In this document: positions 29,186 through 57,919 of the stretch, one piece after another
How the letters are laid out: each line of letters begins with the position of its first letter
Position numbering within the stretch: the first letter of the stretch is position 1
Source: a phage
Sequence record: PV806339.1
Strand: one strand, 5' to 3'
DNA: 60,026 nt
The notes under the pieces: generated by a model
What the model was told of the DNA's origin: nothing
Databases searched by the model: none
What the model saw: the letters and a program-made list of their open reading frames with translations, nothing else
Program-made: the position numbers and the translations under genes

Positions 29186-31381
29186 GTGGCTGATGAAGAC
29201 GTAGGTATCAGCGCGGCCAAGTTGGTCGGCGAAGCCTTGCAGTGGAATGGCGAGAAGCCCAAACTCACATACCTGTCCCGGTGTGTAGGGGAAGCGTTAG
29301 CCATTTCCGCATTGAACATGGACGCGGCGAAAAACTTCGGGGAGGTTTTGCAGTGGGACGGTAAATTGCCGTCCATCTTCCGCGCCTCCAGACTGGTCGG
29401 CGAAGTGCTGGCGATTCAAAAGATGGAGATCCGCGCATCGTCAATGATTTGCGAAGCGCTGGTCAAAGAGCCGCAATTTATGGCGGCCGAAATGATCTGC
29501 GAGGCTATCGGTCAGGCGGCCACGGAACGGCCACCGCTTTACGCAGATGCGGTGTATGAGTATGTCACGCAGCACGACGTCGTACCGCCTTTGTCGGAAG
29601 TCATTTCTCCGGAAAGTCTGTACACGTTGTGGAATTACGCCATTGTCCAGCGGCCGATCGATGACCCGATTTCCTACAACATCGTGAAGCAGGCGGTGAC
29701 GCTGTCCGTTCTGGCGTCGCCTATCGTGACCATTTCGTACGACAAGGTGAAGACCGCGTGGTCGTATGCTGTGGTGTCCGCGACGCTCGGTGACTTCCCG
29801 CTGCCGGATGAAATGTGGTCGAAGATCAGCACGAAGCAGGTCTGGAATCTGGTATTGCAGTCGATCGACATCCCGTACGTCCCGACGTCTGGTGTGTTCG
29901 TTCGTCATGAATCGACGCTGGTGGTTCAGGCCCATCCGCTGCCGATGTACACGACGCCTGCGTCCGTGAAGTCGAACGCGGTTCTGGCCGCGCAGAAGCG
30001 CCCGGTTGAACGACTCCCGCGCTCAATGACTCGCGTGGCGCAGGGATTATCGCAGGCCGTTACCGCGCTGCCGATCCCGATGCCACGGTCTGACGTGTTC
30101 GCCGCGCAGATGCTGTCACAGGCTGTAATCCCGGCCGACTTCGTTGACCCGACTGTCGGCGTCGAGCACGCGGCCGCAGTGACGTCGTACGCCGTTTGCG
30201 AGTATCAGGTGTCGCTTCCTATCAGTTACACGCGCGCGAAGTCCCTGACGCCGCTGGTGCTGCAATTTAGCGATAACCAACGAGTCATTCCGCTGTCCAC
30301 GATGCGCACCAAACATGTTTCGTCTCAGTTCTTGGTCAAGTCTGACTTGCTCCCGGTGCTGTCCACGATGCGCACCGAACATGTTTCGTCTCAGTTCTTG
30401 GTCAAGTCTGACTTGCTCCCGGTGCTGTCTCGGACGCGCGTTAAACAGGTACGCGGCTATGCAGTGCGGGCGGAAGAGTACACGCCTCCGATTAACCTGC
30501 TGGTGTGGTCGCGCGCTGACGCTGTTCGCATGTCGGTGGTGCAGCAGGCAACGGACTACCCTGACCCGGGAATCCCTACAACGTCGGCCATCGTCAGCGC
30601 GGCCACGGCGTACCACGTCATGAAAGCGCTGGACTACGAAGATCCGAACGACATGTGGGAGGCGAGCAAGGTTCAGATCGTGCCGCAGTTCTTAGAGAAG
30701 GTGGTGAAAGCCCAACCGCTGCGGCTCCCGATCTCGTACGCTCCGCTGGCGCAATTTGTTGAACTGGTGACGCGGTACCAGTACATGCCGCCTCCGGGCG
30801 AAGTCGCCGAGTCCGGTATCCATGTTCGTCAGGTGATGCAGCCAGTGGCGTTCCGCGCGACGTACCCTGACCCGACTGTCCCGGTATCCCACCTGACGGT
30901 CAATCAGGTGCTGGAGCACATCGCGATCCCGGCCGACTATCCGGACGTCCACCTGCCGACGTCGGACGCGATTGTAAATCAGGTATTGGAACACGTTGCG
31001 CAGATTGACGATTTCCCTGATCCCGGTACCATGTTCCGGCCGCTTATTGTCAGCCAGATCATTCAGCAGGCGGCACAGGATGCGTCTTACCCGGATTGGA
31101 GCACACTGCATAAACCGCTTGCGGTTCAGCAGGTAATTCAGCATGTATCAATGACGGCGGAATACCCTGACAAGGACGTCCCGCAATCATTTGCAAAAGT
31201 GTCTCAAGTTTTGCAGCACTATGCCGATAAAGCTAATTACCCAGACAAAGATGCTCCCCAATCCACGCTACGAGTCCGTCAGGTACTTGAGCAGGTAATG
31301 ATGCGCGACAAGTCGATGTACGAAATGCCGCAGCCACCACGGAAACATCGGGTGCAAATCACTTGCCGCTTTGTGTACTGA
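29186..31381 (+). CDS. 731-aa repeat protein, probable tail fibre
   Basis: GTG start with an AAGGGGG SD. Built almost entirely of degenerate ~22-24-aa repeats (e.g. YPD(P/K)xxPxSxxxVxQVL(E/Q)Hxxxxxx). Last structural gene before a strong terminator. Confidence 0.8.
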   Translation: MADEDVGISAAKLVGEALQWNGEKPKLTYLSRCVGEALAISALNMDAAKNFGEVLQWDGKLPSIFRASRLVGEVLAIQKMEIRASSMICEALVKEPQFMAAEMICEAIGQAATERPPLYADAVYEYVTQHDVVPPLSEVISPESLYTLWNYAIVQRPIDDPISYNIVKQAVTLSVLASPIVTISYDKVKTAWSYAVVSATLGDFPLPDEMWSKISTKQVWNLVLQSIDIPYVPTSGVFVRHESTLVVQAHPLPMYTTPASVKSNAVLAAQKRPVERLPRSMTRVAQGLSQAVTALPIPMPRSDVFAAQMLSQAVIPADFVDPTVGVEHAAAVTSYAVCEYQVSLPISYTRAKSLTPLVLQFSDNQRVIPLSTMRTKHVSSQFLVKSDLLPVLSTMRTEHVSSQFLVKSDLLPVLSRTRVKQVRGYAVRAEEYTPPINLLVWSRADAVRMSVVQQATDYPDPGIPTTSAIVSAATAYHVMKALDYEDPNDMWEASKVQIVPQFLEKVVKAQPLRLPISYAPLAQFVELVTRYQYMPPPGEVAESGIHVRQVMQPVAFRATYPDPTVPVSHLTVNQVLEHIAIPADYPDVHLPTSDAIVNQVLEHVAQIDDFPDPGTMFRPLIVSQIIQQAAQDASYPDWSTLHKPLAVQQVIQHVSMTAEYPDKDVPQSFAKVSQVLQHYADKANYPDKDAPQSTLRVRQVLEQVMMRDKSMYEMPQPPRKHRVQITCRFVY
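30293..30424 (+). repeat. 66-bp tandem duplication (2 copies, 1 mismatch) inside the repeat-protein gene
   Basis: Units 30293-30358 and 30359-30424 differ only by aaacat/gaacat. They encode LSTMRT(K/E)HVSSQFLVKSDLLPV twice. Confidence 0.95.
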
Positions 31382-33342: not shown

Positions 33343-33623
33343 ATTAAGCCTCGGTTATATTCGTCCACGTATTTTTCATTTTCAGGAGATCGGTCTACCT
33401 GATTAATCTCGCTGAACTCGCAGGAAATAATATCCCCGCTAGGCAGGCGCACCCGCCAAAAAATATCCTCTTCACGCGGCCCGGTGCGTTCCCATTCGAG
33501 CACGGTTCCGTAGTATTTATGCCCGTTGAATCGGTCAGTGAAATGCACGGAGTCGCCTTTAATCGGCCAGCCCGGTTTTATCTTGGCACGGTATTTCCGT
33601 TTTATAGCCTCAACGTCGATCAT
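33339..33623 (-). CDS. hypothetical protein
   Basis: 94 aa. ATGA overlaps at both ends, within the operon. Confidence 0.7.
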   Translation of the reverse strand: MIDVEAIKRKYRAKIKPGWPIKGDSVHFTDRFNGHKYYGTVLEWERTGPREEDIFWRVRLPSGDIISCEFSEINQVDRSPENEKYVDEYNRGLI

Positions 33624-34519
33624 ACTTCATCGTCCTCGAAGTCTTCGTCAAAAAGGTCAGACTGGAACGGCTCACATGATGATGTGCAGCCATCGCCGTC
33701 GTCCGGGTTAGTGCGGGTCAGGTACAGCAGGCGCTGGCGGTCTTCCAGTCCGGCGTCGGCCATAAGCTGATCCGTGTTTCGTTTGCCACGGAACCATGTG
33801 TGGCCGTCTTCCGCTTTAACGTGGCCGTACTGGATTTCCATGTCGCGGTTCCACGTAAACCATTCAGGGTGTTCGTGGGCTATCAGGTACAGCTTTGCAT
33901 TGCTCTTTTTAAAGCAGGTCAGGCAGTTCCCGTAATGCGGCGGGATGTTCAGTTTGAACGGCATGGCATCCCAATAATCGTTCACGTCCTGCTTATCGAA
34001 ACTCCCCCAATGGCAAAGGGGGTACACCAGATTGAATTTCTTGGCCGACGCTTTGTTCGGGTCAGCCCGCTCCGGCTCGTCCGACCGCATTCCGATGGCC
34101 GTCTTGGCACTCCACCCCCGGCGCGCAAGACCATTGCTGCGCATCCAGTGGCGAATCGTCTGCGTTTTCAGATAGTCGCTGCACTTCTGGCGCGATATGT
34201 TCGGGATGCCCTCGACGCTGATCAGGCTTTCAAACGGTTCGCCCTTCCGTGCGGCCGTCTCGAAACTGACGACCCGGTGGCGCATCCCGACACCGTGTTC
34301 CGGACTGGCGTAGCCCTCCAGCCACACCAGATTCAGGCCGAAGTGTTTATCCACCTTGTCGGCGAATATCAGTGTTTCTTCGTGCTCCCGGCCAGTATTG
34401 GCGAACACGAAACGCAGGTCATATTTGTGGCCGTAATTCTCGATCAGGTATGCACAAAGAAAGCCGGACGACTGGCCGCCGGAAAAGCTGACGACAAGCG
34501 GCTCTTTGTTAGTTGGCAT
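33620..34519 (-). CDS. PP-loop ATPase, PAPS-reductase-like family
   Basis: The PP-loop VVSFSGGQSSGFL follows directly after the start MPTNKEP (the ORF opens at 34603 but overlaps the upstream gene). Cys-rich C-terminus (GNCLTCFK...CTSSC). Ends ...FEDDEV. Confidence 0.7.
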   Translation of the reverse strand: MPTNKEPLVVSFSGGQSSGFLCAYLIENYGHKYDLRFVFANTGREHEETLIFADKVDKHFGLNLVWLEGYASPEHGVGMRHRVVSFETAARKGEPFESLISVEGIPNISRQKCSDYLKTQTIRHWMRSNGLARRGWSAKTAIGMRSDEPERADPNKASAKKFNLVYPLCHWGSFDKQDVNDYWDAMPFKLNIPPHYGNCLTCFKKSNAKLYLIAHEHPEWFTWNRDMEIQYGHVKAEDGHTWFRGKRNTDQLMADAGLEDRQRLLYLTRTNPDDGDGCTSSCEPFQSDLFDEDFEDDEV

Positions 34520-35222
34520 CGGTTGAATCCTCGCATAATGGTATGAAGTCCTTCGGGCCGTCGCCTGAACCGGGGAAGCGCCGGAAGACCATTTCGTCTT
34601 CAATGGTCAGTTTATCCTTGCTGTTCCCGCGACGATAGAAGTCGGCCATGCCGCTGCCGTACGTGCGGTCAATCCCGGCACCATACGGATCTTGCGGGCA
34701 AAGTTCCAGCGCCAGCACTTCTCGCCAGTCCGGCCGATCGATGCGGCTGACGATGCGATGGTTATTCGACACCCGGCAGTACCCCGAGGCTATCAGCGTT
34801 TCCACCAGCCGGGCCTGTTCCTTGCCACGCATCGTTTTCGCGCGCTTGACGTCCTCTTTCCTTGCCCGGGCGAAATACTCCCGCGAGAAGCGGCTACCGA
34901 CGTTCTCCGCGAAGATGCGCAGGTCTTTGATGACCATGCCCCATTTCCGTCGGCTACCTTCTTCCACGTATCGAATGGCCCCGGCGTAGCGCAGCAGCAT
35001 TGCATCGGTCAGGCGGGCATTCTTCGGGTCTTTGGCCTTCCACCAGCCGTACACTTCCACCATGCGGGCCATCGCCTTGTCGCTGTACCATAGCTCGGCG
35101 TGGCTGGTGGGCGAGTATTCCGGGTAACACTTCGCTCCGCCGTCAAACGCCCGGTAGCAGTACCAGATCCCGCCGCTGTACTGGAAGTGCGGTATCTTGT
35201 GTCGCTCTTTCATCGTAGCCAT
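34509..35222 (-). CDS. hypothetical protein
   Basis: 237 aa, tightly packed in the operon. Confidence 0.75.
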   Translation of the reverse strand: MATMKERHKIPHFQYSGGIWYCYRAFDGGAKCYPEYSPTSHAELWYSDKAMARMVEVYGWWKAKDPKNARLTDAMLLRYAGAIRYVEEGSRRKWGMVIKDLRIFAENVGSRFSREYFARARKEDVKRAKTMRGKEQARLVETLIASGYCRVSNNHRIVSRIDRPDWREVLALELCPQDPYGAGIDRTYGSGMADFYRRGNSKDKLTIEDEMVFRRFPGSGDGPKDFIPLCEDSTDAN

Positions 35223-42236: not shown

Positions 42237-43313
42237 TTAAACCTCGTCGTCGTCTTCTTCGTCGTTCAGCGTTCCGGTGTACTCGACTACCTGCCCGGCC
42301 TCGTCCAGCACGCTGATCACCGCACGCAGGGACTTATCGAGTTGGAACAGGTTAGCCATCATGGTCAGGAACTGGCCGCCGTCGGTGCCGTAGCGTTCGA
42401 GCGTGGCGTCGTAGTTCGCATCAACGTCGGCCTCGCCGATGTGGATACCGGACAGGATGGCTTTGTCGGACAGGCGGAAGTACACGGTGTCGATGCCCGG
42501 GCATTGCGTATCGACTTCGAGATCCAGCGCGCGGACAGTCCAGTGACGTGACAGCAGGTCAACCACCGACTCGTCTTTGAAGATGTCCGTGTCCTTCATC
42601 TTGACGTCGTCGCCATCGTCGTGTTTCAGGTGGATAAACGCATCGCCCTTGATGCCGTCCTGCTGGCCGAGAACCGCGCGCTGCATTAACTGGCGCAGCT
42701 CATACTCGCTCGGCAGGAGGTGTTCGACGGGCCATGTGCCGAGCGCGGTACGGATCAGCGCGCTGCACTCTTCTGCCGTCTTCGCGCTCGACGTGAACAC
42801 GTACACGAACGGGGCGGACAGGATGACGTTGACGCGGGAAGGGCGGATAGGCGCGTGTTTCAGCATTTCCGCTTCCACGTCGTCCTTCATCTGCGCCCAA
42901 TCCTTGCGGTTCGGCTCCCAACCCTCGATCTCTTTCTCCCGCAACGCGGCCATGCGCTTCACGACTTCATTTCGTACGCTGACGCCGGGCAACACACGTT
43001 CGCGCTTCTCGATCTGGAAGACGATGGCGTTTGTTCCGGGGATGGCGAGGGCGAATTTACTTTCAACCTCTTCGCCGTACGCTGCAAAGCCCATTGTCTT
43101 GTAAGACGCCTCCGGCGGATCTGACACTTCATGCTTTTCGAGTGCATCGCTAAACGCTCCTTTCGCGAAAGCCGTTACGGCCTCTTCGTCAACGTTCGGC
43201 AGGTTCAGGATCAGGCGGTGCAGCGGCTTGACCTTCTCGTTACCGTCGTTGGCCGCGTCATACAGCGCGCCGAGGTGCAAGATAATGGCTTTCTCATAAC
43301 CCTTGATTTTCAT
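42237..43313 (-). CDS. RdgC-like recombination-associated protein
   Basis: 358 aa. The segment ERVLPGVSVRNEVVKRMAALREKE...VFTSSAKTAEECSALIRTALGTWPVEHL parallels E. coli RdgC (...[21 protein letters not shown]) as I recall it. Ends EEDDDEV. Confidence 0.5.
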   Translation of the reverse strand: MKIKGYEKAIILHLGALYDAANDGNEKVKPLHRLILNLPNVDEEAVTAFAKGAFSDALEKHEVSDPPEASYKTMGFAAYGEEVESKFALAIPGTNAIVFQIEKRERVLPGVSVRNEVVKRMAALREKEIEGWEPNRKDWAQMKDDVEAEMLKHAPIRPSRVNVILSAPFVYVFTSSAKTAEECSALIRTALGTWPVEHLLPSEYELRQLMQRAVLGQQDGIKGDAFIHLKHDDGDDVKMKDTDIFKDESVVDLLSRHWTVRALDLEVDTQCPGIDTVYFRLSDKAILSGIHIGEADVDANYDATLERYGTDGGQFLTMMANLFQLDKSLRAVISVLDEAGQVVEYTGTLNDEEDDDEV

Positions 43314-44384: not shown

Positions 44385-44455
44385 CGGTGTGCGTCCTATA
44401 GGGTGTCAGGTCAAAAGGGTGGTACGCCATTTTTCAGGCGTGCCGTCCTACGTTT

Positions 44456-44827
44456 TTAAACTTCGTCGTCGTCCGAAACGTCGGTGTCAGTACAGGTCAC
44501 AACGGCCTGAATGAACATGCGGCCAGACGGGTAAGTCACCAGCGCGGATTCCATGCTGAACCGTTGGCCGTGGTGTTTCATGGCGTTCCGGATGGAAGAA
44601 TTAAGGCTGGCCCGCATCTTCGCTTTGAGGGCATTGGCCTCGTCCTGTACCTGCGAAAGCGTACGGTCAAGCGGGAGTTCTTGGGACAGGGTGTACACGC
44701 CACCGACTTCCAGCGCAATGAGGTTCCCCACGACGCTGTACACGCGCACGCGTGACGGCAGTTCAACATCCGGCTCGGTCGTCATCATTGCGCCAGTCAG
44801 TTCGGCCGGGCTTAGTTCTTTGCTCAT
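44456..44827 (-). CDS. hypothetical protein (first gene of leftward operon 1)
   Basis: 123 aa. TGGAG SD. Ends ...VSDDDEV. Confidence 0.75.
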   Translation of the reverse strand: MSKELSPAELTGAMMTTEPDVELPSRVRVYSVVGNLIALEVGGVYTLSQELPLDRTLSQVQDEANALKAKMRASLNSSIRNAMKHHGQRFSMESALVTYPSGRMFIQAVVTCTDTDVSDDDEV

Positions 44828-44869
44828 TGGGATGGCTCCAGTTGGTTCGTTAAATGTTACGTTCGGAGA

Positions 44870-44898
44870 ACAATAGTTCTACACGCGACGTATGTCAA
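44870..44898 (-). promoter_or_regulatory. sigma70-type early promoter, leftward operon 1
   Basis: Minus strand reads TTGACA-TACGTCGCGTGTAGAAC-TATTGT (17-bp spacer) with the conserved box. Confidence 0.7.
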
Positions 44899-44948
44899 TT
44901 CATTTCATCCAGTAATTATGATGACCGGGTGACACTCCAGTTTAGTTT

Positions 44949-45187
44949 CAGCCGGATGACTTTTTGAAGTAAGGCGGGTGGCCGGGCCGCCGGGCTTCAA
45001 CCGGGTAACTTTTTCAAGTAAGCGCGGAACGTCGCAACGACAACCGGACAGGTTTTTCAAGTAAGCCCGTCAGCCGGGTGAAATTGCCCCGACGCTGGTG
45101 GACAAAACCGTCAGCCGGGTAGGTTTTTGAAGTAAGAACTGGCCGCGTCGTTCAAAATTTTTCAACCGGGTAACTTTTTCAAGTAAG
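44949..45187 (+). repeat. five ~25-bp iterons CA(A/G)CCGG(G/A)(T/C)RNNTTTTT(C/G)AAGTAAG
   Basis: Copies at 44949-44973, 44998-45022, 45041-45065, 45112-45136 and 45163-45187. Copies 2 and 5 are identical. Partial copies lie at 44921-44940 and 45071-45085. Confidence 0.9.
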
Positions 45188-45493
45188 CCCGTCGGGAATT
45201 TTTATAGAGAAAGTCAGGCCCGGCGCGGCCTGCCGTTGTGGGCGGTTGTCGTTTTTGGCGGGATTTCGTACAAATCGTTATAAATCAACGGCTTAACCTA
45301 TGCGCCGATCGGCCTGTTTTGGCCCGGTTGGCGTCGGTTTTTCGTATAGAGTTCAAGTGTTTAGGACGTGGCGCGGTGTGCCGTTTGGCGGTGTGCCGGG
45401 GCGGGGGCCGTGGGGCGCGGCGGTGCAATGCGGCCCGGCGTGGCGATCGGTGGCGCTTTTATGTGCGGTTAATCAAATAATATGAAAAAAGAT

Positions 45494-45523
45494 TTGACGC
45501 ACGCCGCGTATATCATTTACATT
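45494..45523 (+). promoter_or_regulatory. sigma70-type promoter, rightward cassette 1
   Basis: TTGACG-CACGCCGCGTATATCATT-TACATT, followed by the leader hairpin CCC-TTCG-GGG. About 65 bp are shared with the promoter at 48128. Confidence 0.65.
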
Positions 45524-45587
45524 TAAATTCCCTTCGGGGGACGGGGCAAAAAGTCCCGGCGATAAACTAACTTTATGAGGTGTCACG

Positions 45588-45848
45588 ATGGAAAAGGTAT
45601 ACAACGCGATCAAGGGTCAGACGTTGCAACATTGGTTATCAATCGTTATTAAGCGCGACGAAAGCGGCACGGCAACGGTTGAACTGCATAGCACGATCCA
45701 CGTTAACCGGGTGAGCACGCTTTCTTTTTCATGGGGGAAGGAATTCACCGACGCCGATATTTTAAATGACAATGATTTATTACGCGTTATTTATCAGAAG
45801 TACGGCCGCGAAATTTTCACCGCCGAATATACCCGCGATTTCAAATAA
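45588..45848 (+). CDS. hypothetical protein
   Basis: 86 aa. GAGG SD. Confidence 0.7.
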   Translation: MEKVYNAIKGQTLQHWLSIVIKRDESGTATVELHSTIHVNRVSTLSFSWGKEFTDADILNDNDLLRVIYQKYGREIFTAEYTRDFK

Positions 45849-45861
45849 GAGGATCAACACA

Positions 45862-46401
45862 ATGCAAACTATCATTACCAAATATTCTAACGGTTCAATT
45901 ATGGCTAAATGCTGGAATGGTTGGACGCGTTCACAGTATGACGCTGAATTAAATAGCGAACAAAATCACCGCGCGGCCGCTGAAAAGTTGATCGCTAAAC
46001 TCAATGCGAATAAATCAGTTAGTTGGGGGATTGTTGCTAGTGCGCCATCCGTGCCGGGCGTGCGTGGTACGGATAATGGCTGGACGTTTATGATCGGTTA
46101 TATTCCAGAAGTCGCGCCGCTGGATATGTCGATCACTGTTAAATTCTGCCCGGCAACAAATAAAGGCCCGGCGTATATGCGCGTTTATTCGTGGTTAGTG
46201 CCGCGCGGGATCAAGGTTAACTATTCGCCACGCGTCGCCGACGGGTCAGACATTCAAGCCAATGCACGATACGCGGCCGGGATCATGTTAGAGCGAATTA
46301 ATGAAATATGCCGCGAGGGGGGCGATCTTTTAGGCTGGAAAATTGCGGACTATGTGCAATTGTACGACGGCGATCGCCTGTTCACACTGAAAGCTAATTA
46401 A
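45862..46401 (+). CDS. hypothetical protein
   Basis: 179 aa from the ATG 45862 with an AAGAGGA SD (the ORF opens at 45766). Confidence 0.75.
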   Translation: MQTIITKYSNGSIMAKCWNGWTRSQYDAELNSEQNHRAAAEKLIAKLNANKSVSWGIVASAPSVPGVRGTDNGWTFMIGYIPEVAPLDMSITVKFCPATNKGPAYMRVYSWLVPRGIKVNYSPRVADGSDIQANARYAAGIMLERINEICREGGDLLGWKIADYVQLYDGDRLFTLKAN

Positions 46402-48093: not shown

Positions 48094-48127
48094 TGGTGAC
48101 GCGGCCGACGATTAAAGAGAAAAGTTA

Positions 48128-48157
48128 TTGACGCACGCCGCGTATATCATCTATTAT
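48128..48157 (+). promoter_or_regulatory. sigma70-type promoter, rightward cassette 2
   Basis: TTGACG-CACGCCGCGTATATCATC-TATTAT (18-bp spacer), followed by the same CCC-TTCG-GGG leader. Confidence 0.7.
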
Positions 48158-48218
48158 TAAATTCCCTTCGGGGGCCGGGGGCAATGGGGCCGACGGTTAT
48201 CAAAACAGGTACATAAAA

Positions 48219-49626: not shown

Positions 49627-49896
49627 ATGGAAATTAACGGCGTACAGGTCAAAAGCGTTGAGCGGTTCAGCAATTACGCGGAATGGTTAGCGCGTCAAAT
49701 GGTGGCGGGCGTGCCGTTGGCGTCGCACGCTTGCCCGCATTGCGGATCGGCGTTGCACGTCATCGCAAACGGTGACAAGGGCGATCAATGGGATTCTACT
49801 TGCGCTTGTCCGGTGTGCGCGGGCTTCTTTCATCGCTCAATCATTCACGGCGAAAAGCCGGAAATAACGATCGTTAAACTGGATCGAGGTTGGTAA
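49627..49896 (+). CDS. zinc-ribbon protein
   Basis: 89 aa with CPHCGS...CACPVC, i.e. four Cys in a ribbon-like arrangement. Confidence 0.7.
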   Translation: MEINGVQVKSVERFSNYAEWLARQMVAGVPLASHACPHCGSALHVIANGDKGDQWDSTCACPVCAGFFHRSIIHGEKPEITIVKLDRGW

Positions 49897-50647: not shown

Positions 50648-50846
50648 TGATATACGCGGCGTGCGTTGGTGTGCCGTGTATCGGGCCTATGGTGCGCCGC
50701 TGTAGTTGATATACGCGGCGTGCGTATGGCGGCCCGTCCTGCTTTCTTCCTTCCTGATATACACGACGTGCATCAATGCGGCCTTATGTGCGCGCTATGC
50801 CGTATGGCGGCCCGCTATGGTGCTGCATGATATACGCGGCGTGCGT
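50648..50846 (+). repeat. four promoterless copies of the early-promoter spacer box
   Basis: TGATATACGCGGCGTGCGT at 50648-50666, 50707-50725 and 50828-50846, plus the variant TGATATACACGACGTGCAT at 50755-50773. No usable -10/-35 pair accompanies them. Confidence 0.9.
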
Positions 50847-51083
50847 TGGTGTGCGGCTGTATATGGCTATCTATTCCCCTTTCTATGGTATCCCCTGCTA
50901 TATGGTGTGACGGGGCGTTATTGTATGCCCTTATTTCGGCCGCTATGGGGGCTAGGCGGGGCGATCGTGGTGTAAGGTATGCCTACCTATTACGATCTAT
51001 CTTGCGAGGCGTGGCGGGCGGCTGAGAAAGAATTACGGTCACGATTTCAAAAAGGTACTTACCCGCCAGTCGGTCGGCCCGGG

Positions 51084-51095
51084 GGTGCGCAGAGC
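51084..51095 (+). other. candidate cohesive-end (cosN) dodecamer GGTGCGCAGAGC
   Basis: A GC-rich dodecamer containing the TGCGCA palindrome, in the largest non-coding region. It matches my unverified recollection of the 12-nt 5' cohesive end of chi-like phages. Confidence 0.3.
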
Positions 51096-51307
51096 CGCTT
51101 TCTCGGAAAATGGGCCGGATCTGCCATAGCCCCGCTTTGCGAAATCAATAACTTAGCCGAAAAACCGAATTTCTCCCGTAGGGAGTCTCCAAATCGCGGT
51201 GGTGACGGGGGTGCGGGCGGAACGGCGCTTTAGCCCCGCAATCGGTTGATTGTATTACTGTTTTACCCGGTGGGCGGGTGCTGACCAAGTCCACGGCAGC
51301 AGTATCA

Positions 51308-51587
51308 GGTTACAAGTTACAGACGGGTTACAAGTTTTTCGCTTTGTAACCTCTAACTATCTCACTGTTTTTACTGCGTTTTTCTCCTATAAAGTTACAA
51401 GTTACAAATAAAGTATAGTAATAGTCCAGAAATAGAGAAAACGAGGTAAAAATGTGAATTTTATATAGGGGGGAATTTTACCCGGGCGCTAAACCACTTC
51501 GGTTTGTAACCTGAATACCCGGATCGCTGAGAGCCGCGCCACCACTGGCCCGAACATGGTTACAAACGGCGAAAATGGTATGTAACC
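51308..51587 (+). repeat. array of GGTTACA(A/T) half-sites in direct and inverted arrangement
   Basis: ggttacaagttacag 51308-51322; GGTTACAAG-n7-CTTTGTAACC 51326-51351; gttacaagttacaaa 51394-51408; ggtttgtaacc 51501-51511; GGTTACAAAC-n9-GGTATGTAACC 51558-51587. Confidence 0.85.
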
Positions 51588-51620
51588 TTTTGCCCGTTTT
51601 GGCCGTTTTCTTGCGTTTCA

Positions 51621-51636
51621 ATAACAAATTTGTTAT
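51621..51636 (+). promoter_or_regulatory. perfect 16-bp palindrome ATAACAAATTTGTTAT (operator candidate)
   Basis: Lies just upstream of the putative promoter of the XRE gene. A further half-site TTTGTTAT lies at 51667-51674, just after the -10 element. Confidence 0.6.
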
Positions 51637-51654
51637 ACGTCTTGCCCCGAATCC

Positions 51655-51663
51655 TGCTATAAT
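51655..51663 (+). promoter_or_regulatory. extended -10 promoter TGcTATAAT for the XRE-family gene
   Basis: TGCTATAAT lies 34 nt upstream of the ATG at 51697. The -35 element is poor. Confidence 0.45.
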
Positions 51664-51696
51664 TTATTTGTTATAAACAGCAAAAATAGGTCAAAA

Positions 51697-51984
51697 ATGC
51701 AGCACGATGAATGCCGTGAAACGTTGATGGATTTCAAACGACAATTACAGACACATTTGAAGGCGATTTTACGTCGTCAGGGGGTCACACAGAGCGCGCT
51801 TGCGACGATGATCGGCGTACACCAGTCAAGATTAAGTTTCATGCTTAACAGTGACGCAGACAGAGTTTCGATCGATAAACTCATTGAAGCGATAGTGAAA
51901 CTGGACGGCGTGTTTATGGTGAAAATCGGAGATCAAACAGACATAAATCGAGTGCGGTACAAGGAGTGCGAAGACAACGTTTGA
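51697..51984 (+). CDS. XRE-family HTH DNA-binding protein
   Basis: 95 aa. HTH segment VTQSALATMIGVHQSRLSFMLN. Confidence 0.75.
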   Translation: MQHDECRETLMDFKRQLQTHLKAILRRQGVTQSALATMIGVHQSRLSFMLNSDADRVSIDKLIEAIVKLDGVFMVKIGDQTDINRVRYKECEDNV

Positions 51985-52024: not shown

Positions 52025-54610
52025 CTAAACTTCGTCTTCATCGTCAAACGGGTCTGGCTTTTTGCCGACCAGTTTTTCGACTTCTGCGTCATGCCGTTTT
52101 AACGTAGTCTGCACCCACGACGAGTTAAGTTTCCCCGCGTCGTCGAATGCCCCTTTGACCCGCTTCCTGACATAAACGCGGCCAGATTCGCCGCCAAATT
52201 TGACCACGCCGCCCGGCTTGAAGCCCAATTCCATAAGCATGTTTTTCAGGCGGTTCGTCTTCGGCATTTCCACGTCTGTCATTTCGAGGAATGCGTTTTT
52301 CAGGGACGGCACGAAGATGACGTCGCGGTGTACGCCCGGCGTCGTTCCGTCACGAAGCATTTGTGCGATTGCGCCTTCCACGCCATCGTCAGACGCGTCG
52401 GCCATGACCGCGAATGCTTCGGTGTCCTGCGGTGCGTGTCCTTTGGCATCGAAATCCTTTCCGATCTCCCAATCGAGGAACCACTTTTTGATAGCAGGTG
52501 CGTGGTTTTCGATTGCCCGGTACACGTTTTTGAAGAAGCGCGCGCGTTCAGTCTTCGACCCGTAAACCCGCTCCATGTCCAGATGATTTTCTGCCTGCGT
52601 GGACACCACCAGATAACGACGCTGGTTTTCATCGAGTGGCAATGCGTTGAAGTGGTTGGTGAACATCATTTTGCTGCTGGTGTTCACGACTTCCTTCGGC
52701 TTGCGGCCCTTTGGCTCAATCTGGAAGCGATCGTTTGTGATGAATTCCTTCTGGCGTTCCACCGCGCTGTACCGATCGCCTTTGTCGTAGATCTCTTCCA
52801 CGATTTTCAGGATGTGGCCCTCGGCCCAATCGCTGAAACGGCCATTCATCACGGTGTTTGACACATAGCCCACGTTCGACGCGCCGAGCATCCGCGACAT
52901 GATGATGCCGAGCGTCGTTTTACCAGAACCATGCGCACCACGGATCAGAAGCGAGTAGTTGATGCGTTTCGTTGGGTGCTGAATAACCCACGCCATCCAG
53001 TCCAGAACATAGCGGCGTTCCTTCTCGTTCGGGAAAAGCACGATGAAGAAGTCTTTGATGATCTCCAGCGCCTTTTTGTCGTACGGAGAAAGGTCAGTCG
53101 CGGCCTCCGGAATGGATTCAGGGTCAAAAGAGTTCAGCCACGTACGCCCACGGTCGTCAATAAAGAATTCCGGCCCGATCACCCCCTCTTTCGGCTTCCA
53201 CACAGATTCCGGCATGTCACCGTGCATCGCCGGGTAGTACATCGCGTCCCAAACGATAGGAACCGGGCGGACTACCGACGCATAGTGGACAGGCTTGAAG
53301 GCTTCTTCCTCAAACACGCATTTTTTCGCAAAAGCGACGTCGAAAGCGCCTTTTGTGATGTAATCGCCCGTGGTTTTTTCGATAAAACTGTCATTTGCCT
53401 TCGAGAAAACGAAGTTTTTCAGCCACTGCGGAGTCTCTTTTGACCCGTAATCGAAGCCCAAAAGCTCCCTTTTGTCACCAGCAGTGAGGCGGAAGTTGTT
53501 GATCCTGCGGTATGCTTCGGCCGCAATCTGGACGATGGCCTTGCGGGTAAGCCCGAAAATCTGCGCTTTTTTGAATGATTCGGCCCACGCATTCCAGTCA
53601 TTCGCCTCGGTACACTCGGCGAAAGCCTCGCGGTACTCGATGGCGCGTTCTTCCTGCTCGGCTTTCTCGATGTCCTGCACTTCTTTGATGATGGTGCCGA
53701 GCGTGATCAGTCGAGTCGAGTTGTGCGCGAAGCCCTTATCCCACTTGTATTCGAAATCACCTTCGTCGAAGTTGTGTGCCTGCATGGCCCATTCGCGGGC
53801 AATGGCCTTCGCCTCGTCCTGATCGCGGCAGGAAATTTGCAGCGCGGCCAGTACGGTGATGTAGTTCTCGTAATCTTCCGGGTTCGGGTATTTCAGGACG
53901 ATGTCGCGCAGTTCATCGTACGTGCCGTCCCACTTTTTGACGTCAGACAGCGCGGCCCAATCGTCATCGTCTGCCGAACCGATAGACTCATAACCGTTCA
54001 TTGGCCGTTTGACCATTGTCCAGCCCAAGTCCTTCGCGTATCGGTCGAATTCGGCGGCGATCTCGCGAGCGGTATCGAGGCTGATCTCTTCGAGGTCAAG
54101 GTCGGCGGCGTTGTTCAGCGGATTCTCGCCATCAATCCAGTAATAGTCGCGCTTGGTGTCCGGGTGGATACCGTACGCAACGAACTGCTGGCCGTCGGCG
54201 AGGATTTCAACTGCATGGCGCTGGCCGAAGTCGTCTTCCCACACGCCGGATTTCACTTTGGCGAACGGGTTTTCGGTTCGGTACAGGTAGAGTTTCTTCG
54301 GCTCCCGGCCGATACGACATGGCGCTGCACCGACGTTCTCGGCGATCCAGTCTGCCATGTGCGCCACGGCGTCTTCATCGTAAACGTCGATGTCAACCGC
54401 CGGGGTGTATTTGGTCAGAATCCCGATGCCGTTATTCGTATAGCGTTTCGCCCAACGCTGGATCTGCTCCTTATCATTGATTGTTCGTTCCCAATCTTCA
54501 CCGATAGGGCGTTTGCCCGCACCCTTCTTATCGGCGTCCGGGGCGTAGATAGGTACGATGGTGTACCCATTCCCCCAAAGCGTTTCGCCGTACTCTTGCC
54601 AGTAGTTCAT
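52025..54610 (-). CDS. bifunctional primase-polymerase / P-loop helicase (prim-pol plus P4/D5-type NTPase)
   Basis: 861 aa. N-terminal prim-pol-like region (GYTIVPIY...GKRPIGEDW), Walker A GAHGSGKTTLG, Walker B-like ILKIVEE. Ends FDDEDEV. Confidence 0.85.
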   Translation of the reverse strand: MNYWQEYGETLWGNGYTIVPIYAPDADKKGAGKRPIGEDWERTINDKEQIQRWAKRYTNNGIGILTKYTPAVDIDVYDEDAVAHMADWIAENVGAAPCRIGREPKKLYLYRTENPFAKVKSGVWEDDFGQRHAVEILADGQQFVAYGIHPDTKRDYYWIDGENPLNNAADLDLEEISLDTAREIAAEFDRYAKDLGWTMVKRPMNGYESIGSADDDDWAALSDVKKWDGTYDELRDIVLKYPNPEDYENYITVLAALQISCRDQDEAKAIAREWAMQAHNFDEGDFEYKWDKGFAHNSTRLITLGTIIKEVQDIEKAEQEERAIEYREAFAECTEANDWNAWAESFKKAQIFGLTRKAIVQIAAEAYRRINNFRLTAGDKRELLGFDYGSKETPQWLKNFVFSKANDSFIEKTTGDYITKGAFDVAFAKKCVFEEEAFKPVHYASVVRPVPIVWDAMYYPAMHGDMPESVWKPKEGVIGPEFFIDDRGRTWLNSFDPESIPEAATDLSPYDKKALEIIKDFFIVLFPNEKERRYVLDWMAWVIQHPTKRINYSLLIRGAHGSGKTTLGIIMSRMLGASNVGYVSNTVMNGRFSDWAEGHILKIVEEIYDKGDRYSAVERQKEFITNDRFQIEPKGRKPKEVVNTSSKMMFTNHFNALPLDENQRRYLVVSTQAENHLDMERVYGSKTERARFFKNVYRAIENHAPAIKKWFLDWEIGKDFDAKGHAPQDTEAFAVMADASDDGVEGAIAQMLRDGTTPGVHRDVIFVPSLKNAFLEMTDVEMPKTNRLKNMLMELGFKPGGVVKFGGESGRVYVRKRVKGAFDDAGKLNSSWVQTTLKRHDAEVEKLVGKKPDPFDDEDEV

Positions 54611-55130: not shown

Positions 55131-55547
55131 ATGTCTGGTATCTTCGAACAACTGCTGGCTGAACAACAAAAAACCAACACCCTGCTGGAAGGCGTTCTGG
55201 CAGCACTGAAAGGCGGCGCGGTGAACACTTCCGCTGACGCTGGTAGCGAAACTACTGAAAAAACCACCACCACCAAAGGCGGTGCTAAGGGCGGCGCGAA
55301 AGGCGGTGCAGGTAAAACCGAAACTAAAGCGGTCAAGCCTAAACACACCAAAGACGAAGTAGTCGCGGCTGTCGTTGCGGTTAAAGACGCGTTCGGCGCG
55401 CCGGAAGCCAAGAAAATCACCGCACACTTCGGCCTCGCCAAAGTCGCGGAAGCGAAGGAAGAACACTTCGACGAAATCGTCGAAATGTGTGAAGCCAAAC
55501 TGGCTGAAAAAGATGAAGGCGGTAACGGCGAAGAAGACGACGTTTAA
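55131..55547 (+). CDS. hypothetical protein with a Lys/Gly/Thr-rich low-complexity centre
   Basis: 138 aa. GGAG SD. First gene after the rightward promoter and followed directly by a terminator. Ends GEEDDV. Confidence 0.75.
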   Translation: MSGIFEQLLAEQQKTNTLLEGVLAALKGGAVNTSADAGSETTEKTTTTKGGAKGGAKGGAGKTETKAVKPKHTKDEVVAAVVAVKDAFGAPEAKKITAHFGLAKVAEAKEEHFDEIVEMCEAKLAEKDEGGNGEEDDV

Positions 55548-55608: not shown

Positions 55609-55938
55609 GTGACCAGCATTACTTTCACCAACGTAGCAACATCCGGCGGCGCAGTTCTCGCGCGCACTTGGGCGGAGTTTCGTTTTCAAATCGGTGATCG
55701 CGATGTGCTGTTCAGAGTTACTTCACCTGTTTCGAAACACGAAGCGCCGCTGCTCGTAACCCATGCTGCATCGGGCTATCGAGTGTGCGACGTCTGGTGG
55801 GACGACGTGGCGAAGACTCGCTTTAACGCAGGCCGCAATAATTACAGCGGGGCAGGCGCTAGGGCATTGGTAGCGACGATTGAGCGAGTCGGCGAACACC
55901 GATTCCTCAATGCGATAAAGGCGTATCCGAATGAGTAG
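55609..55938 (+). CDS. hypothetical protein
   Basis: 109 aa from the GTG 55609, preceded by GGAGAGG. The longer ORF from 55375 overlaps the upstream gene and the terminator. Confidence 0.6.
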   Translation: MTSITFTNVATSGGAVLARTWAEFRFQIGDRDVLFRVTSPVSKHEAPLLVTHAASGYRVCDVWWDDVAKTRFNAGRNNYSGAGARALVATIERVGEHRFLNAIKAYPNE

Positions 55939-57268
55939 TAAGTCACTGTTAGTCCGCATCATGCGGGAATTCGGCGGTGGCGGCCACTCAATCTTCGCGC
56001 CTTCTGCGTCAGCGCGTTGGATCGCATGTTCTGGAAGCCTGATAGCCGGGCTTTTCGAGCATGACGAAACCATCTACGAGGCGGCGGAAGGCACGGTGGC
56101 CCACGGAATCGCCGAACAATGGCTGCGAACGGATGTCCGGCCAACCCATTTAATCGGTACGGTCGAGACGATCACGGAAGGCGGTGTCAGCCATGACATC
56201 CCCATTACTCGGTCAATGCTCGACTCGGTTCAGGAGTACGTTGACTGGTGCCGATTTGAAGAGGGTGAAATGTTCACGGAAATCCGGGTCTGGTTTACCG
56301 ACCTGATGCCGCGAGCGAACCCGGATGAACCTGACGAAGACCCGATCGAGTTTGTCGCTCAGGGCGGAACGGCGGATAATATCATCATCCGCGACCGAAC
56401 CTTGATCGTGACCGACCTGAAATACGGGACTGGCGTTCAGGTTTTCGCGGAAGGGAACCCGCAGGCGCTACTTTACGCGTACGGTGCGTACCGCGCTTTC
56501 TCGGATGAATACGAGTTTGACCGTATTGTCATCCGGATCGCGCAGCCGAGGCTCGACCATTTCGATACGTGGGAAATCACGATTGACGAATTGTTAGAGT
56601 TCGCGGAGTATGCCCGGGAGCGAATTGCAGCGGCATGGAGCCTTACCGCGCCGCGCCGCGCATCCCTGAAAGGGTGTCGCTTTTGCCGGGCAGCACATAA
56701 CTGCGCAGCGATAGCGTACATGATGGAATGCGCAGTGGGCGGGGACGTGGAATTCCTTGAAGCTGAATTCGGGGAGGAAGAAATGTCAGTATTGCGTGAT
56801 GCGCTGGCGCAGGAATATAAGTTCCGGCGTGCGCAGTTCGGAAACCTGACAACCGAGCAGATGGCGAAGATCCTGCCATACCGCAAGGTGGTCGAAAACT
56901 GGTTCTCGCGCCTTGACTTCGAACTGGAACGCCGCGCAATGAACGGCGAGAAGGTACCGGGTCAAAAGCTGGTGGAGTCGCGGACAAACCGTAAATTCGC
57001 CAACGAGAAAGATGCGATCGCGCTGTTCCGGTTCCTCGATATTGACGAGGACAAGTACATCGAACGCAAACTGCGTACCCCGGCGCAGATGGAAGAAGTG
57101 CTTAGGGATGAATTGGGCGTGTCCCGGGCTGGCGCGCCGAACATCATCGCGGGGATCGTCTACAAGCCGGAAGGCAAGCCGACACTGGCACCGCTGACCG
57201 ATAAGCGGCCACCACTGGACGGCAAGTATTCCGGGGCGTGGGACGACGAAGATGATGACGAAGTGTAA
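55931..57268 (+). CDS. PD-(D/E)xK nuclease, DUF2800 / Cas4-like
   Basis: 445 aa. PSASARWIACSGS and AAEGTVAH at the N-terminus, the VTDLKYGTG catalytic motif, and the Cys cluster CRFCRAAHNCAA. Ends WDDEDDDEV. Confidence 0.85.
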   Translation: MSSKSLLVRIMREFGGGGHSIFAPSASARWIACSGSLIAGLFEHDETIYEAAEGTVAHGIAEQWLRTDVRPTHLIGTVETITEGGVSHDIPITRSMLDSVQEYVDWCRFEEGEMFTEIRVWFTDLMPRANPDEPDEDPIEFVAQGGTADNIIIRDRTLIVTDLKYGTGVQVFAEGNPQALLYAYGAYRAFSDEYEFDRIVIRIAQPRLDHFDTWEITIDELLEFAEYARERIAAAWSLTAPRRASLKGCRFCRAAHNCAAIAYMMECAVGGDVEFLEAEFGEEEMSVLRDALAQEYKFRRAQFGNLTTEQMAKILPYRKVVENWFSRLDFELERRAMNGEKVPGQKLVESRTNRKFANEKDAIALFRFLDIDEDKYIERKLRTPAQMEEVLRDELGVSRAGAPNIIAGIVYKPEGKPTLAPLTDKRPPLDGKYSGAWDDEDDDEV

Positions 57269-57322: not shown

Positions 57323-57919
57323 ATGGCCGAGAAATTAGTCCCTGCGAAAAAAGTCAAGAATGGCGTGCTGTACAAATCTGGTCACATCAAGATTTCTAAC
57401 GTACGTGCTTCTTACCCGCACCTCGATAAGCCGTACGGCGGTGAAGACGGCGGCGAGCCGAAATACTCGCTGACGCTTTTGATGCCGAAAGACAGCCACG
57501 GCGAGATCGAGAAAATCATCCGTGAGCAGATCGAAGTCACCAAGAAGAACCACAAGACAGGCGCGCTGAAAGTCGCCCCGTCCATGTTGTTCATCAAAGA
57601 CGGTGATACCGATTTTCCGGATAAACCGGAATGCGAAGGGATGTGGGTTATCTCCGCACGCGAAAGCAAACGCCCGGATGTGTATAACATCGAGCGCGAA
57701 GAGTTGACTACCTCTTCCGAAATTCTGGAAGAGATCTACGGTGGTTGTTGGGTGTCGGTTGTCATCCGTCCGTGGTCGCAGGAAAACAAATTCGGCAAAC
57801 GCGTTAACGCCAACCTGATTTCCGTTCTGAAACGCAAAGACGACGAGCCGTTCGGTGAAGGTCGTGTGGACACGTCCGACGCGTGGGATGAAGACGAAGA
57901 TTGGGAAGACGAAGTGTAA
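57323..57919 (+). CDS. single-stranded DNA-binding protein, DUF2815 type
   Basis: 198 aa. ISNVRASYPHLDKPYGG...KYSLTLLMPKD matches the DUF2815 pattern. Sits between the DUF2800 gene and polA. Acidic tail ends WEDEV. Confidence 0.8.
   Translation: MAEKLVPAKKVKNGVLYKSGHIKISNVRASYPHLDKPYGGEDGGEPKYSLTLLMPKDSHGEIEKIIREQIEVTKKNHKTGALKVAPSMLFIKDGDTDFPDKPECEGMWVISARESKRPDVYNIEREELTTSSEILEEIYGGCWVSVVIRPWSQENKFGKRVNANLISVLKRKDDEPFGEGRVDTSDAWDEDEDWEDEV

Follow-up and report, generated by a model that had tools for sequence, protein, structure and literature searches.

What is a run of five short direct repeats doing between the divergent early promoters of a Chi-like phage? The repeats lie at 44947-45187 of sequence record PV806339.1, a stretch of 60,026 bp that was analysed over its whole length and is called the window here, and all five follow the consensus CCKG-N5-TTTTT-SAAGTAAG in the same orientation. 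The best reading of their sequence is that they are binding sites (iterons) for a predicted phage-encoded, sequence-specific DNA-binding protein; that the array is a protein docking site is almost certain, to judge from its letters, because the same array recurs in distant relatives. As to its role, we tentatively place a replication origin, or a cis-acting origin enhancer, of Chi-like phages first and rank it above a transcription-control array, since a phage with its own replisome needs a specific loading place and this is the sole iteron-like one besides the repeats near the cohesive-end site (cos). What we infer is that a protein binds, which protein it is, and that the array is linked to replication. 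The preliminary description had called the locus an "origin or regulator array"; directly repeated, asymmetric, intergenic iterons they are, and of the two functions we favour the origin by a small margin.

Positions 44400-45900 are 92-98.5% identical to Chi-like Salmonella phages (PMBT19, Siskin, and Chi), and the published cohesive-end sequence of Chi, GGTGCGCAGAGC (PMC4342425), occurs once in the window, at 51084. Because of these matches, the window is identified as a permuted, complete Chivirus genome (Casjensviridae). The phage is lytic, and its array lies ~6 kb left of the right cohesive end (51084).

A pattern match with CCGGRYRNNTTTTTSAAGTAAG returns exactly five positions in the window (44952, 45001, 45044, 45115, and 45166), all on the + strand, with no further match even at 2 mismatches and a chance expectation of 0.00 in 100 shuffles. 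The repeat search recovers the same copies as 31-nt units starting at 44947, 44996, 45039, 45110, and 45161, which bears out the five same-direction repeats described earlier and their spacings of 49, 43, 71, and 51 bp. The 13-nt core on its own has three extra matches with 2 mismatches in the 60 kb, scattered through coding DNA. The full and partial copies are:

44947-44973, + strand: iteron 1, TTCAGCCGGATGACTTTTTGAAGTAAG
44996-45022, + strand: iteron 2, TTCAACCGGGTAACTTTTTCAAGTAAG
45039-45065, + strand: iteron 3, GACAACCGGACAGGTTTTTCAAGTAAG
45110-45136, + strand: iteron 4, GTCAGCCGGGTAGGTTTTTGAAGTAAG
45161-45187, + strand: iteron 5, TTCAACCGGGTAACTTTTTCAAGTAAG, the same 27-mer as iteron 2
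44921-44933, + strand: left-half-only partial iteron beside the leftward promoter PL, GACCGGGTGACAC, kept within Chivirus
45067-45083, + strand: left-half-only partial copy, CCGTCAGCCGGGTGAAA

The partial copies had been reported at 44921 and 45071; they are real, but each consists of the left half only, with ACCGGGTGAC at 44924-44933 and, at 45067-45079, CCGTCAGCCGGGT, whose 13 nt recur exactly as the left flank of iteron 4 (45108-45120). A small ACTT/AAGT dyad, said to be part of every unit, is present only in copies whose variable part ends in AAC, and since neither copies 3 and 4 nor most other genera have it (the latter read AGG-TTTTT), we consider it incidental. One expects of an iteron array at least three direct repeats of ~17-25 bp in one orientation, and here there are five; a regular, helically phased spacing of ~22 bp is not seen.

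No gene overlaps the array, in line with the earlier remark that no initiator gene does, and the GenBank annotation of the region is "none" or short hypothetical open reading frames (ORFs). One such ORF is annotated over the array in Siskin (CPT_Siskin_063, 51 amino acids [aa]; window 44905-45060, - strand) and another, gp63 of Chi, over the GC-rich spacer (window 45300-45485, + strand). Both are probably not genes, because the underlying DNA differs in length and frame between genera. No Rfam family matches 44400-46000 at E<=1, and we have set aside the reading of the array as an RNA element.

The same array, with 2-5 copies in the same place and orientation, is found in ~20 lineages, including Enc34, Redjac-like, Jacunavirus, Yonseivirus, Kokobelvirus, and Zhonglingvirus phages, a temperate Pseudomonas phage, and metagenome contigs. 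In every bearer it stands between the promoter of the DUF7609-RdgC operon and the opposite early promoter, and all copies point in the same direction in each lineage. When the 763-bp intergenic region is used as a blastn query, only the repeat part aligns in distant genera. The copies were distributed as follows:

Chi: 5 copies
Serratia phage Smarc5: 5 copies, spacings 49/43/71/51, identical to the window
Hafnia phage Enc34: 5 copies, spacings 39/32/43/51
Providencia phage PSTCR9 and Redjac-like contigs: 5 copies, spacings 72/45/71/51
Cronobacter phage JC01: 4 copies and a degenerate first copy
Klebsiella phage Soft: 4 copies, one gap being 168 bp
Providencia phage Kokobel1: 3 copies
XAP3: 4 copies
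Temperate Pseudomonas phage SS2019XI (Maxdohrnvirus): 4 copies, GGATCCGGCGAGGTTTTTCAAGTAAG
58.9-kb contig L048: 5 copies
Metagenome contigs L032-L035: 2-3 copies, with DUF7609 genes 27-40% identical to that of the window

Conservation of copy number and phasing in relatives had been proposed as a check on the repeats; place and orientation are kept across genera, whereas copy number is flexible and the spacing is irregular, ranging from 31 to 168 bp. Within the unit, the SAAGTAAG half is almost invariant across lineages and the left half is lineage-specific, and the T-run is occasionally exchanged for a GATC-containing string (e.g., TAGATCTCCCAAGTAAG). A comparison of 10 Chivirus genomes gives a conservation of 0.982 for the 13-bp core and of 0.884 for the spacers between iterons (Mann-Whitney p=3e-6); the left half does not exceed the spacers, and the whole 27-mer shows no significant difference within Chivirus (p=0.21). 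By this measure the array is under selection, and it is the most conserved non-coding feature of the Chi-like early region.

These comparisons bear directly on the possibility that the repeats have no function and were either left behind by local duplication or belong to a small selfish repeat that multiplied within the intergenic DNA. Copy number does vary by lineage, one relative has no array, and copies 2 and 5 are nearly identical (97% as 31-nt units), as one would see soon after a duplication or gene conversion. On the other side, the core is kept in place and orientation where the flanking proteins barely align, it is significantly more conserved than the spacers, and the array was never found elsewhere in the phage genomes examined. 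Given the conservation data, an array without function is very unlikely, and we assign it next to no weight.

A second possibility is that the array controls transcription, with a phage early/middle regulator binding the sites and, helped by DNA bending through integration host factor (IHF), switching the divergent early promoters off or on. We regard this as the main rival of the origin reading, and a serious one, though somewhat less likely than it. The landmarks outside the iterons that one needs to judge it, and to judge the origin reading, are:

44870-44898, - strand: PL, leftward early promoter, TTGACA-17-TATTGT, 10/12 matches in the consensus scan
44876-44892: palindrome-like spacer of PL, ACGTCGCGT
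45150-45162, + strand: A/T box abutting iteron 5, GTTCAAAATTTTT, read from the sequence
45198-45214, + strand: T-run and TATAGAG box, AATTTTTATAGAGAAAG, 15 nt after iteron 5
45283-45295, + strand: exact IHF consensus site, AATCAACGGCTTA, with an A/T-rich stretch before it
45336-45364, + strand: second GGTTTTTCGTATAGAG box fused to a weaker IHF-like site, AGTTCAAGTGTTTAG, read from the sequence
45370-45455, + strand: G-rich, very stable block, GC 0.66 and GC skew +0.42, holding the GCGGTGTGCCG pair
45456-45493, + strand: A/T-rich stretch directly upstream of PR, the window's fifth least stable 40-mer (nearest-neighbour scan)
45494-45523, + strand: PR, rightward early promoter, TTGACG-18-TACATT, from the consensus scan
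45497-45515: palindromic spacer of PR, ACGCCGCGT

PL, which the consensus scan recovers where the preliminary description had put a leftward promoter, is conserved in all genera examined, and the array does lie between two divergent sigma-70-type early promoters. The IHF consensus between the array and PR is what one would look for in a regulatory region with a bending site, an irregular spacing and 2-5 copies are typical of enhancer or operator clusters, and Proteus phage Saba manages without the array. The distances argue the other way. Across lineages, the first iteron lies 7-86 bp from PL and the last one 109-374 bp from PR; the array is out of register with both promoters, where an operator array should keep a fixed distance or overlap them. 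In FSL SP-030 (L018), an HNH endonuclease gene of ~700 bp is inserted directly after PL (flipped coordinates 3570-4090) and separates it from the array: iterons 1-2 are lost, three are left, the first of them 694 bp from PL, and the phage is viable. Several other Chivirus records (H76-H80) have a ~550-bp insertion in the array region. None of the iterons runs into a -35 or -10 element. By the consensus scan the repeats contain no sigma-70 promoter, and by-eye comparison with the consensus of sigma-32, sigma-28, sigma-54, and sigma-E promoters fails on spacing.

The early promoters themselves offer another operator candidate. They have a common palindromic spacer, ACGCNGCGT (ACGC-N-GCGT within ACGCACGCCGCGTATATCA), which differs from the iteron motif and recurs near cos. 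The PR block is duplicated at 48117-48180 (spacer 48127-48147), giving a third promoter with its own palindromic spacer, and four spacer-only copies (19-27-mers without a -35) on the minus strand start at 50648, 50707, 50755, and 50828 (50648-50854), 230-430 bp left of cos; these four could be operators or a decoy array for an early regulator. This palindromic spacer motif, rather than the iterons, is the more ordinary operator candidate for a dimeric regulator. The only helix-turn-helix regulator found is the HTH_37/HTH_3 protein at 51697-51984, of which no homologue was detected in SS2019XI or Saba, although SS2019XI has the same iteron core.

Transcription control could also take another form, in which the iterons activate promoters that lack a -35 and use the TATAGA box just downstream as their -10. 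A TA[TG]A[GTA]A box follows the last iteron by 11-15 nt in 7/13 lineages, and similar boxes follow internal iterons in PSTCR9, Kokobel1, and XAP3. This distance would place the iteron centre near -41, the classical position of a class II activator, and terminator-like hairpins with T-runs follow at 45228-45246 and 45324-45337. However, four of the five iterons in the window have no TATAGA box.

A replication origin is the reading that we place first. In its favour are an array unique in its genome, the lack of register with the promoters, separate operator-like spacers at those promoters, the IHF consensus and the A/T boxes near the last iteron, and a replisome of the phage's own. The A/T box of 45150-45162 has its like before the last iteron in Enc34, PSTCR9, XAP3, Soft, and JC01, where the same box is found. 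The T-run and TATAGAG region (45198-45214) is 98% conserved within Chivirus and could act as a short unwinding element or a -10-like element. Iteron origins commonly have an accessory host-factor site, and the exact IHF consensus at 45283-45295 is one, 95 bp from iteron 5; WATCAANNNNTTR has 4 exact matches in the window, two of the others flanking cos, and equivalent aatcaaYggYtta sites are found in Smarc5, Enc34, JC01, and L033. Further along, sites homologous to the second box (tatagaRttcaNNggtttaRg) are found in Chi, Smarc5, and Enc34, and the repeat search confirmed the GCGGTGTGCCG pair noted earlier at 45373 and 45388. No DnaA box was seen by eye in 44828-45587.

If the array is an origin, we propose that an early protein would first bind the bipartite sites, the candidates being the adjacent DUF7609 protein and the Prim-Pol/SF3 helicase, the latter by way of a winged-helix-like domain at its C-terminus. 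IHF would then bend the DNA at 45283, the A/T boxes around iteron 5 (45150-45162 and 45198-45214) would open, perhaps aided by transcription from the flanking early promoters, and the phage helicase-primase would load at the opened boxes. The genes on which this scheme draws, together with others that have the acidic tail discussed below, are:

44456-44827, - strand: gp62 homologue, first gene of the leftward early operon, 123 aa, Pfam DUF7609, acidic tail ...SDDDEV
52025-54610, - strand: primase-helicase, candidate trans-acting initiator, 861 aa, Prim-Pol + PriCT_2 + DUF5906 (SF3 helicase, VapE-like)
1797-2366, + strand: TerS-like protein, acidic tail
33620-34603, - strand: PAPS-reductase-like protein, acidic tail
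42237-43313, - strand: RdgC, acidic DDDEV tail
55131-55547, + strand: 138-aa protein, acidic tail
55931-57268, + strand: DUF2800 nuclease, acidic tail
57323-57919, + strand: T7-type SSB, acidic tail

The primase-helicase matches the NrS-1 helicase in PDB and, as in P4-type replication, joins primase and SF3 helicase in one protein. Its C-terminal domain is confidently modelled with a predicted winged-helix topology, and a fold search with this domain did not retrieve the origin-binding domain of P4 alpha. Further replisome genes encode the T7-type SSB, PolA, the DUF2800 nuclease, and an SNF2 helicase. In the leftward operon, the DUF7609 gene (Chi gp62) always comes first and RdgC always follows a few genes downstream, whereas the first rightward gene differs between lineages; the neighbour proteins of the array have diverged to 19-30% identity across lineages. 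Residues 1-108 of gp62 are 100% identical in essentially all Chivirus records, where the adjacent DNA differs by up to 15%. GenBank records call it hypothetical, "RecT family", or "replication protein DnaD", labels that find no support in Pfam or PHROGs, and a fold model of the DUF7609 protein was uninformative. Pfam detects no Rep_3/RepA-type family in the flanking genes. No protein was found to track the presence of the array in SS2019XI and its absence in Saba; the only candidate from phyletic profiling, an 89-aa protein (49627-49896), is essentially restricted to Chivirus and was dropped.

Eight proteins of the window, the six listed last together with gp62 and the primase-helicase, end in an acidic tail of the form ...D-D-[DE]-E-V (one has ...EEDDV), and that of the SSB alone has been described in the literature. 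The leftward operon codes for proteins of DNA metabolism, and we count this in favour of the origin, along with the tail that gp62 and RdgC have in common with the SSB, the primase-helicase, and the nuclease. By analogy, this common tail looks like a docking peptide for one hub protein; comparable docking tails are the C-terminus of Escherichia coli SSB and those of T7 gp2.5 and gp4.

Several observations weigh against an origin at the array and should be considered together. The iterons are neither evenly spaced nor helically phased. The stability scan finds no strong or long A/T-rich unwinding element abutting them: iteron 5 is flanked by short A/T boxes only, one has to go to 45456 for the nearest 40-mer of low stability, and the lowest stabilities of the genome are found beside cos, at 51.4-51.7 kb. 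The strand-corrected GC skew of the window has its best switch at 37-41 kb, 4-8 kb left of the array, a weak signal that accounts for 13% of the residual variance, where the 95th percentile of the null is 7%; in SS2019XI and Saba the switch is not significant. The DUF7609 protein, one of the two candidate binders, does not vary (100% identity) among Chivirus genomes with different iteron left halves. Finally, Proteus phage Saba (Cenphatecvirus) has no iteron anywhere in its 60-kb genome, although it retains divergent promoters, the replication genes, and a DUF7609 protein with all family-conserved residues; this protein is syntenic with the array elsewhere, yet persists here without it. Either, then, the array is dispensable for this type of phage or Saba initiates replication elsewhere. 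The intergenic region of Saba is only 246 bp long, with the two promoters back to back. Absence of the repeats from close relatives with the same gene order had been named as grounds for abandoning the idea; what was found is absence from this one distant relative and from none of ~20 other lineages. Taken as a whole, GC skew and the stability scan speak neither for nor against the array as an origin.

The region right of cos (51084-51700) deserves its own mention. It has exact IHF consensus sites at 51143 and 51239, at least seven GGTTACAAG/TTGTAACC repeats between 51309 and 51590, and the two least stable 40-mers of the genome (51384 and 51658). By analogy it looks like a lambda-type cosB packaging site, more so than like an origin, for which it is still an alternative location.

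A third set of explanations takes the array as a site for some other DNA transaction: docking or titration of a host protein, a centromere-like or anchoring site, or a polar barrier to forks or translocases or a pause in DNA entry. SAAGTAAG hardly varies between Salmonella and Pseudomonas phages, whose neighbour proteins are 19-30% identical, and such constancy is easier to account for if its reader is unusually conserved. The sites point in one direction in every lineage, as polar signals do, the cos end lies ~6 kb away, SS2019XI has a ParB-like gene in the same operon, and some copies have the GATC-containing string in place of the T-run. By-eye comparison with the sites for IHF, Fis, DnaA, sigma-32, sigma-28, and sigma-54 revealed no resemblance, however, and the lineage-specific left half points to a phage protein that co-evolves with it. 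There are no par genes in the window, no plasmid carries the motif, and the 13 matches in bacterial genomes comprise 12 tandem repeats with no relation to it and one further Casjensviridae-like contig; outside such contigs, the array was not found in bacterial genomes. We think such a role improbable.

The GATC-containing iterons are iteron 5 of STP11/SP-030, iteron 3 of XAP3/L021, and iteron 2 of L022, and the left halves of the SS2019XI iterons contain GGATCC. To judge from the motif, these could possibly be sites of Dam methylation; the phage encodes a DNA methyltransferase.

How does the array compare with known systems? Plasmid iteron origins (RK2 oriV, pSC101, R6K gamma, F oriS, and P1 oriR) consist of asymmetric direct repeats of ~20 bp, and RK2 oriV has five. 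These origins resemble the window in that their repeats all face one way and have an IHF site, A/T boxes, and GC-rich DNA close by; the layout here is reminiscent of RK2 oriV. They differ in that plasmid iterons keep a regular ~22-bp register beside a Rep gene (a winged-helix pair), whereas spacing here is 31-168 bp across lineages, Pfam finds no Rep_3-type gene, the A/T boxes are only ~13-17 bp long, and the motif occurs in no plasmid.

Phage P4 resembles the window in its initiator: P4 alpha and the candidate initiator of the window both combine a primase, an SF3 helicase, and a C-terminal small DNA-binding-type domain in one polypeptide, and in both cases the iterons lie in cis, kilobases from the initiator gene. 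In P4, crr serves as an accessory cluster of repeats, and the type I iterons are octamers, TGTTCACC, in two clusters (ori and crr). No such octamer arrangement is present in the window, which has one cluster of 22-27-bp bipartite units; its primase is also of the Prim-Pol (AEP) type, unlike that of P4.

Lambda ori, with four O-protein iterons and an A/T-rich region, resembles the window in having few initiator-type sites in an early region with early transcription nearby, and both phages have cohesive ends with IHF sites. Lambda iterons are dyad-symmetric, regular, and inside gene O, whereas those described here are asymmetric, irregular, and intergenic. T4 oriF/oriG and the T7 primary origin combine a promoter with an unwinding element and are primed by R-loops. 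The window has a T7-type SSB and a PolA-type polymerase, and its candidate origin also lies among promoters; an activator-dependent promoter that makes the primer would be compatible with an iteron that has a -10-like TATAGA box behind it and with a non-template strand rich in G. Neither T4 oriF/oriG nor the T7 primary origin has iterons, and most iterons of the window have no TATAGA box.

Mu O1-O3 (with divergent Pc/Pe promoters and an IHF site) and the P1 C1 operators are asymmetric sites. The Mu operator region and the window both have multiple asymmetric sites and an IHF site between divergent early promoters, but Mu and P1 operators overlap the promoters that they control and belong to immunity regions, whereas the sites of the window overlap no promoter. 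In the temperate SS2019XI, the regulator/integrase module is 15 kb from the array.

On this comparison, the array is an undescribed member of the iteron class: bipartite, with one invariant half, irregular spacing, and no adjacent Rep gene. The genome papers on Chi and Utah do not mention the repeats, and the Enc34 SSB paper lists the replication module and names no origin. A full-text search with the core sequence and its reverse complement returned unrelated papers only, and a search of the literature on Casjensviridae with origin or iteron found nothing relevant on the motif, the start of replication, or the timing of early transcription.

A more specific form of the origin reading has only a small probability in our view: a new kind of phage origin whose bipartite iterons are read by two partners, one lineage-specific and the other invariant across the family. 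The first would recognize the CCKG-containing left half and the second the T-run with SAAGTAAG. The invariant reader would be either the Prim-Pol/SF3 helicase, to which SAAGTAAG would signal where to load or prime, or the DUF7609 protein, docking to the replisome by its DDDEV tail, and the last iteron with its TATAGA box would form a T4-like, activator-dependent primer promoter. In such a T4-like model, where the activator-dependent promoter makes the primer, the origin and transcription-control readings merge.

Three further observations were made. The RecBCD Chi octamer, GCTGGTGG, occurs at 24 sites on both strands of the window against 1.8 expected from shuffles; one (45094-45101) is inside the array between iterons 3 and 4, and phage Chi has an additional copy directly 3' of iteron 1. 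A 66-bp unit is tandemly duplicated in perfect register (98% identical) at 30292-30423, within a 731-aa ORF at 29186-31381. Records named as Staphylococcus, Enterococcus, and Listeria phages (H67, H75, H78, and H86-H89) hold near-identical Chi-like sequence, among them a 147-kb "Staphylococcus phage SA1" and many short UNVERIFIED contigs; this is most likely due to contamination or mis-assignment in public records.

Chi-like phages (Casjensviridae) are widely isolated and are considered for the biocontrol of Salmonella and Klebsiella. The array provides a handle for finding its binder, testing origin function, and engineering phage-dependent replicons, and work on it would give the DUF7609 neighbourhood its first function. 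In a classic phage it offers a clean lead that can be tested, without being a surprise in kind. Should an origin read by two partners prove true, the choice of start site by phage replisomes built on an AEP primase and an SF3 helicase would become directly testable in phage Chi.

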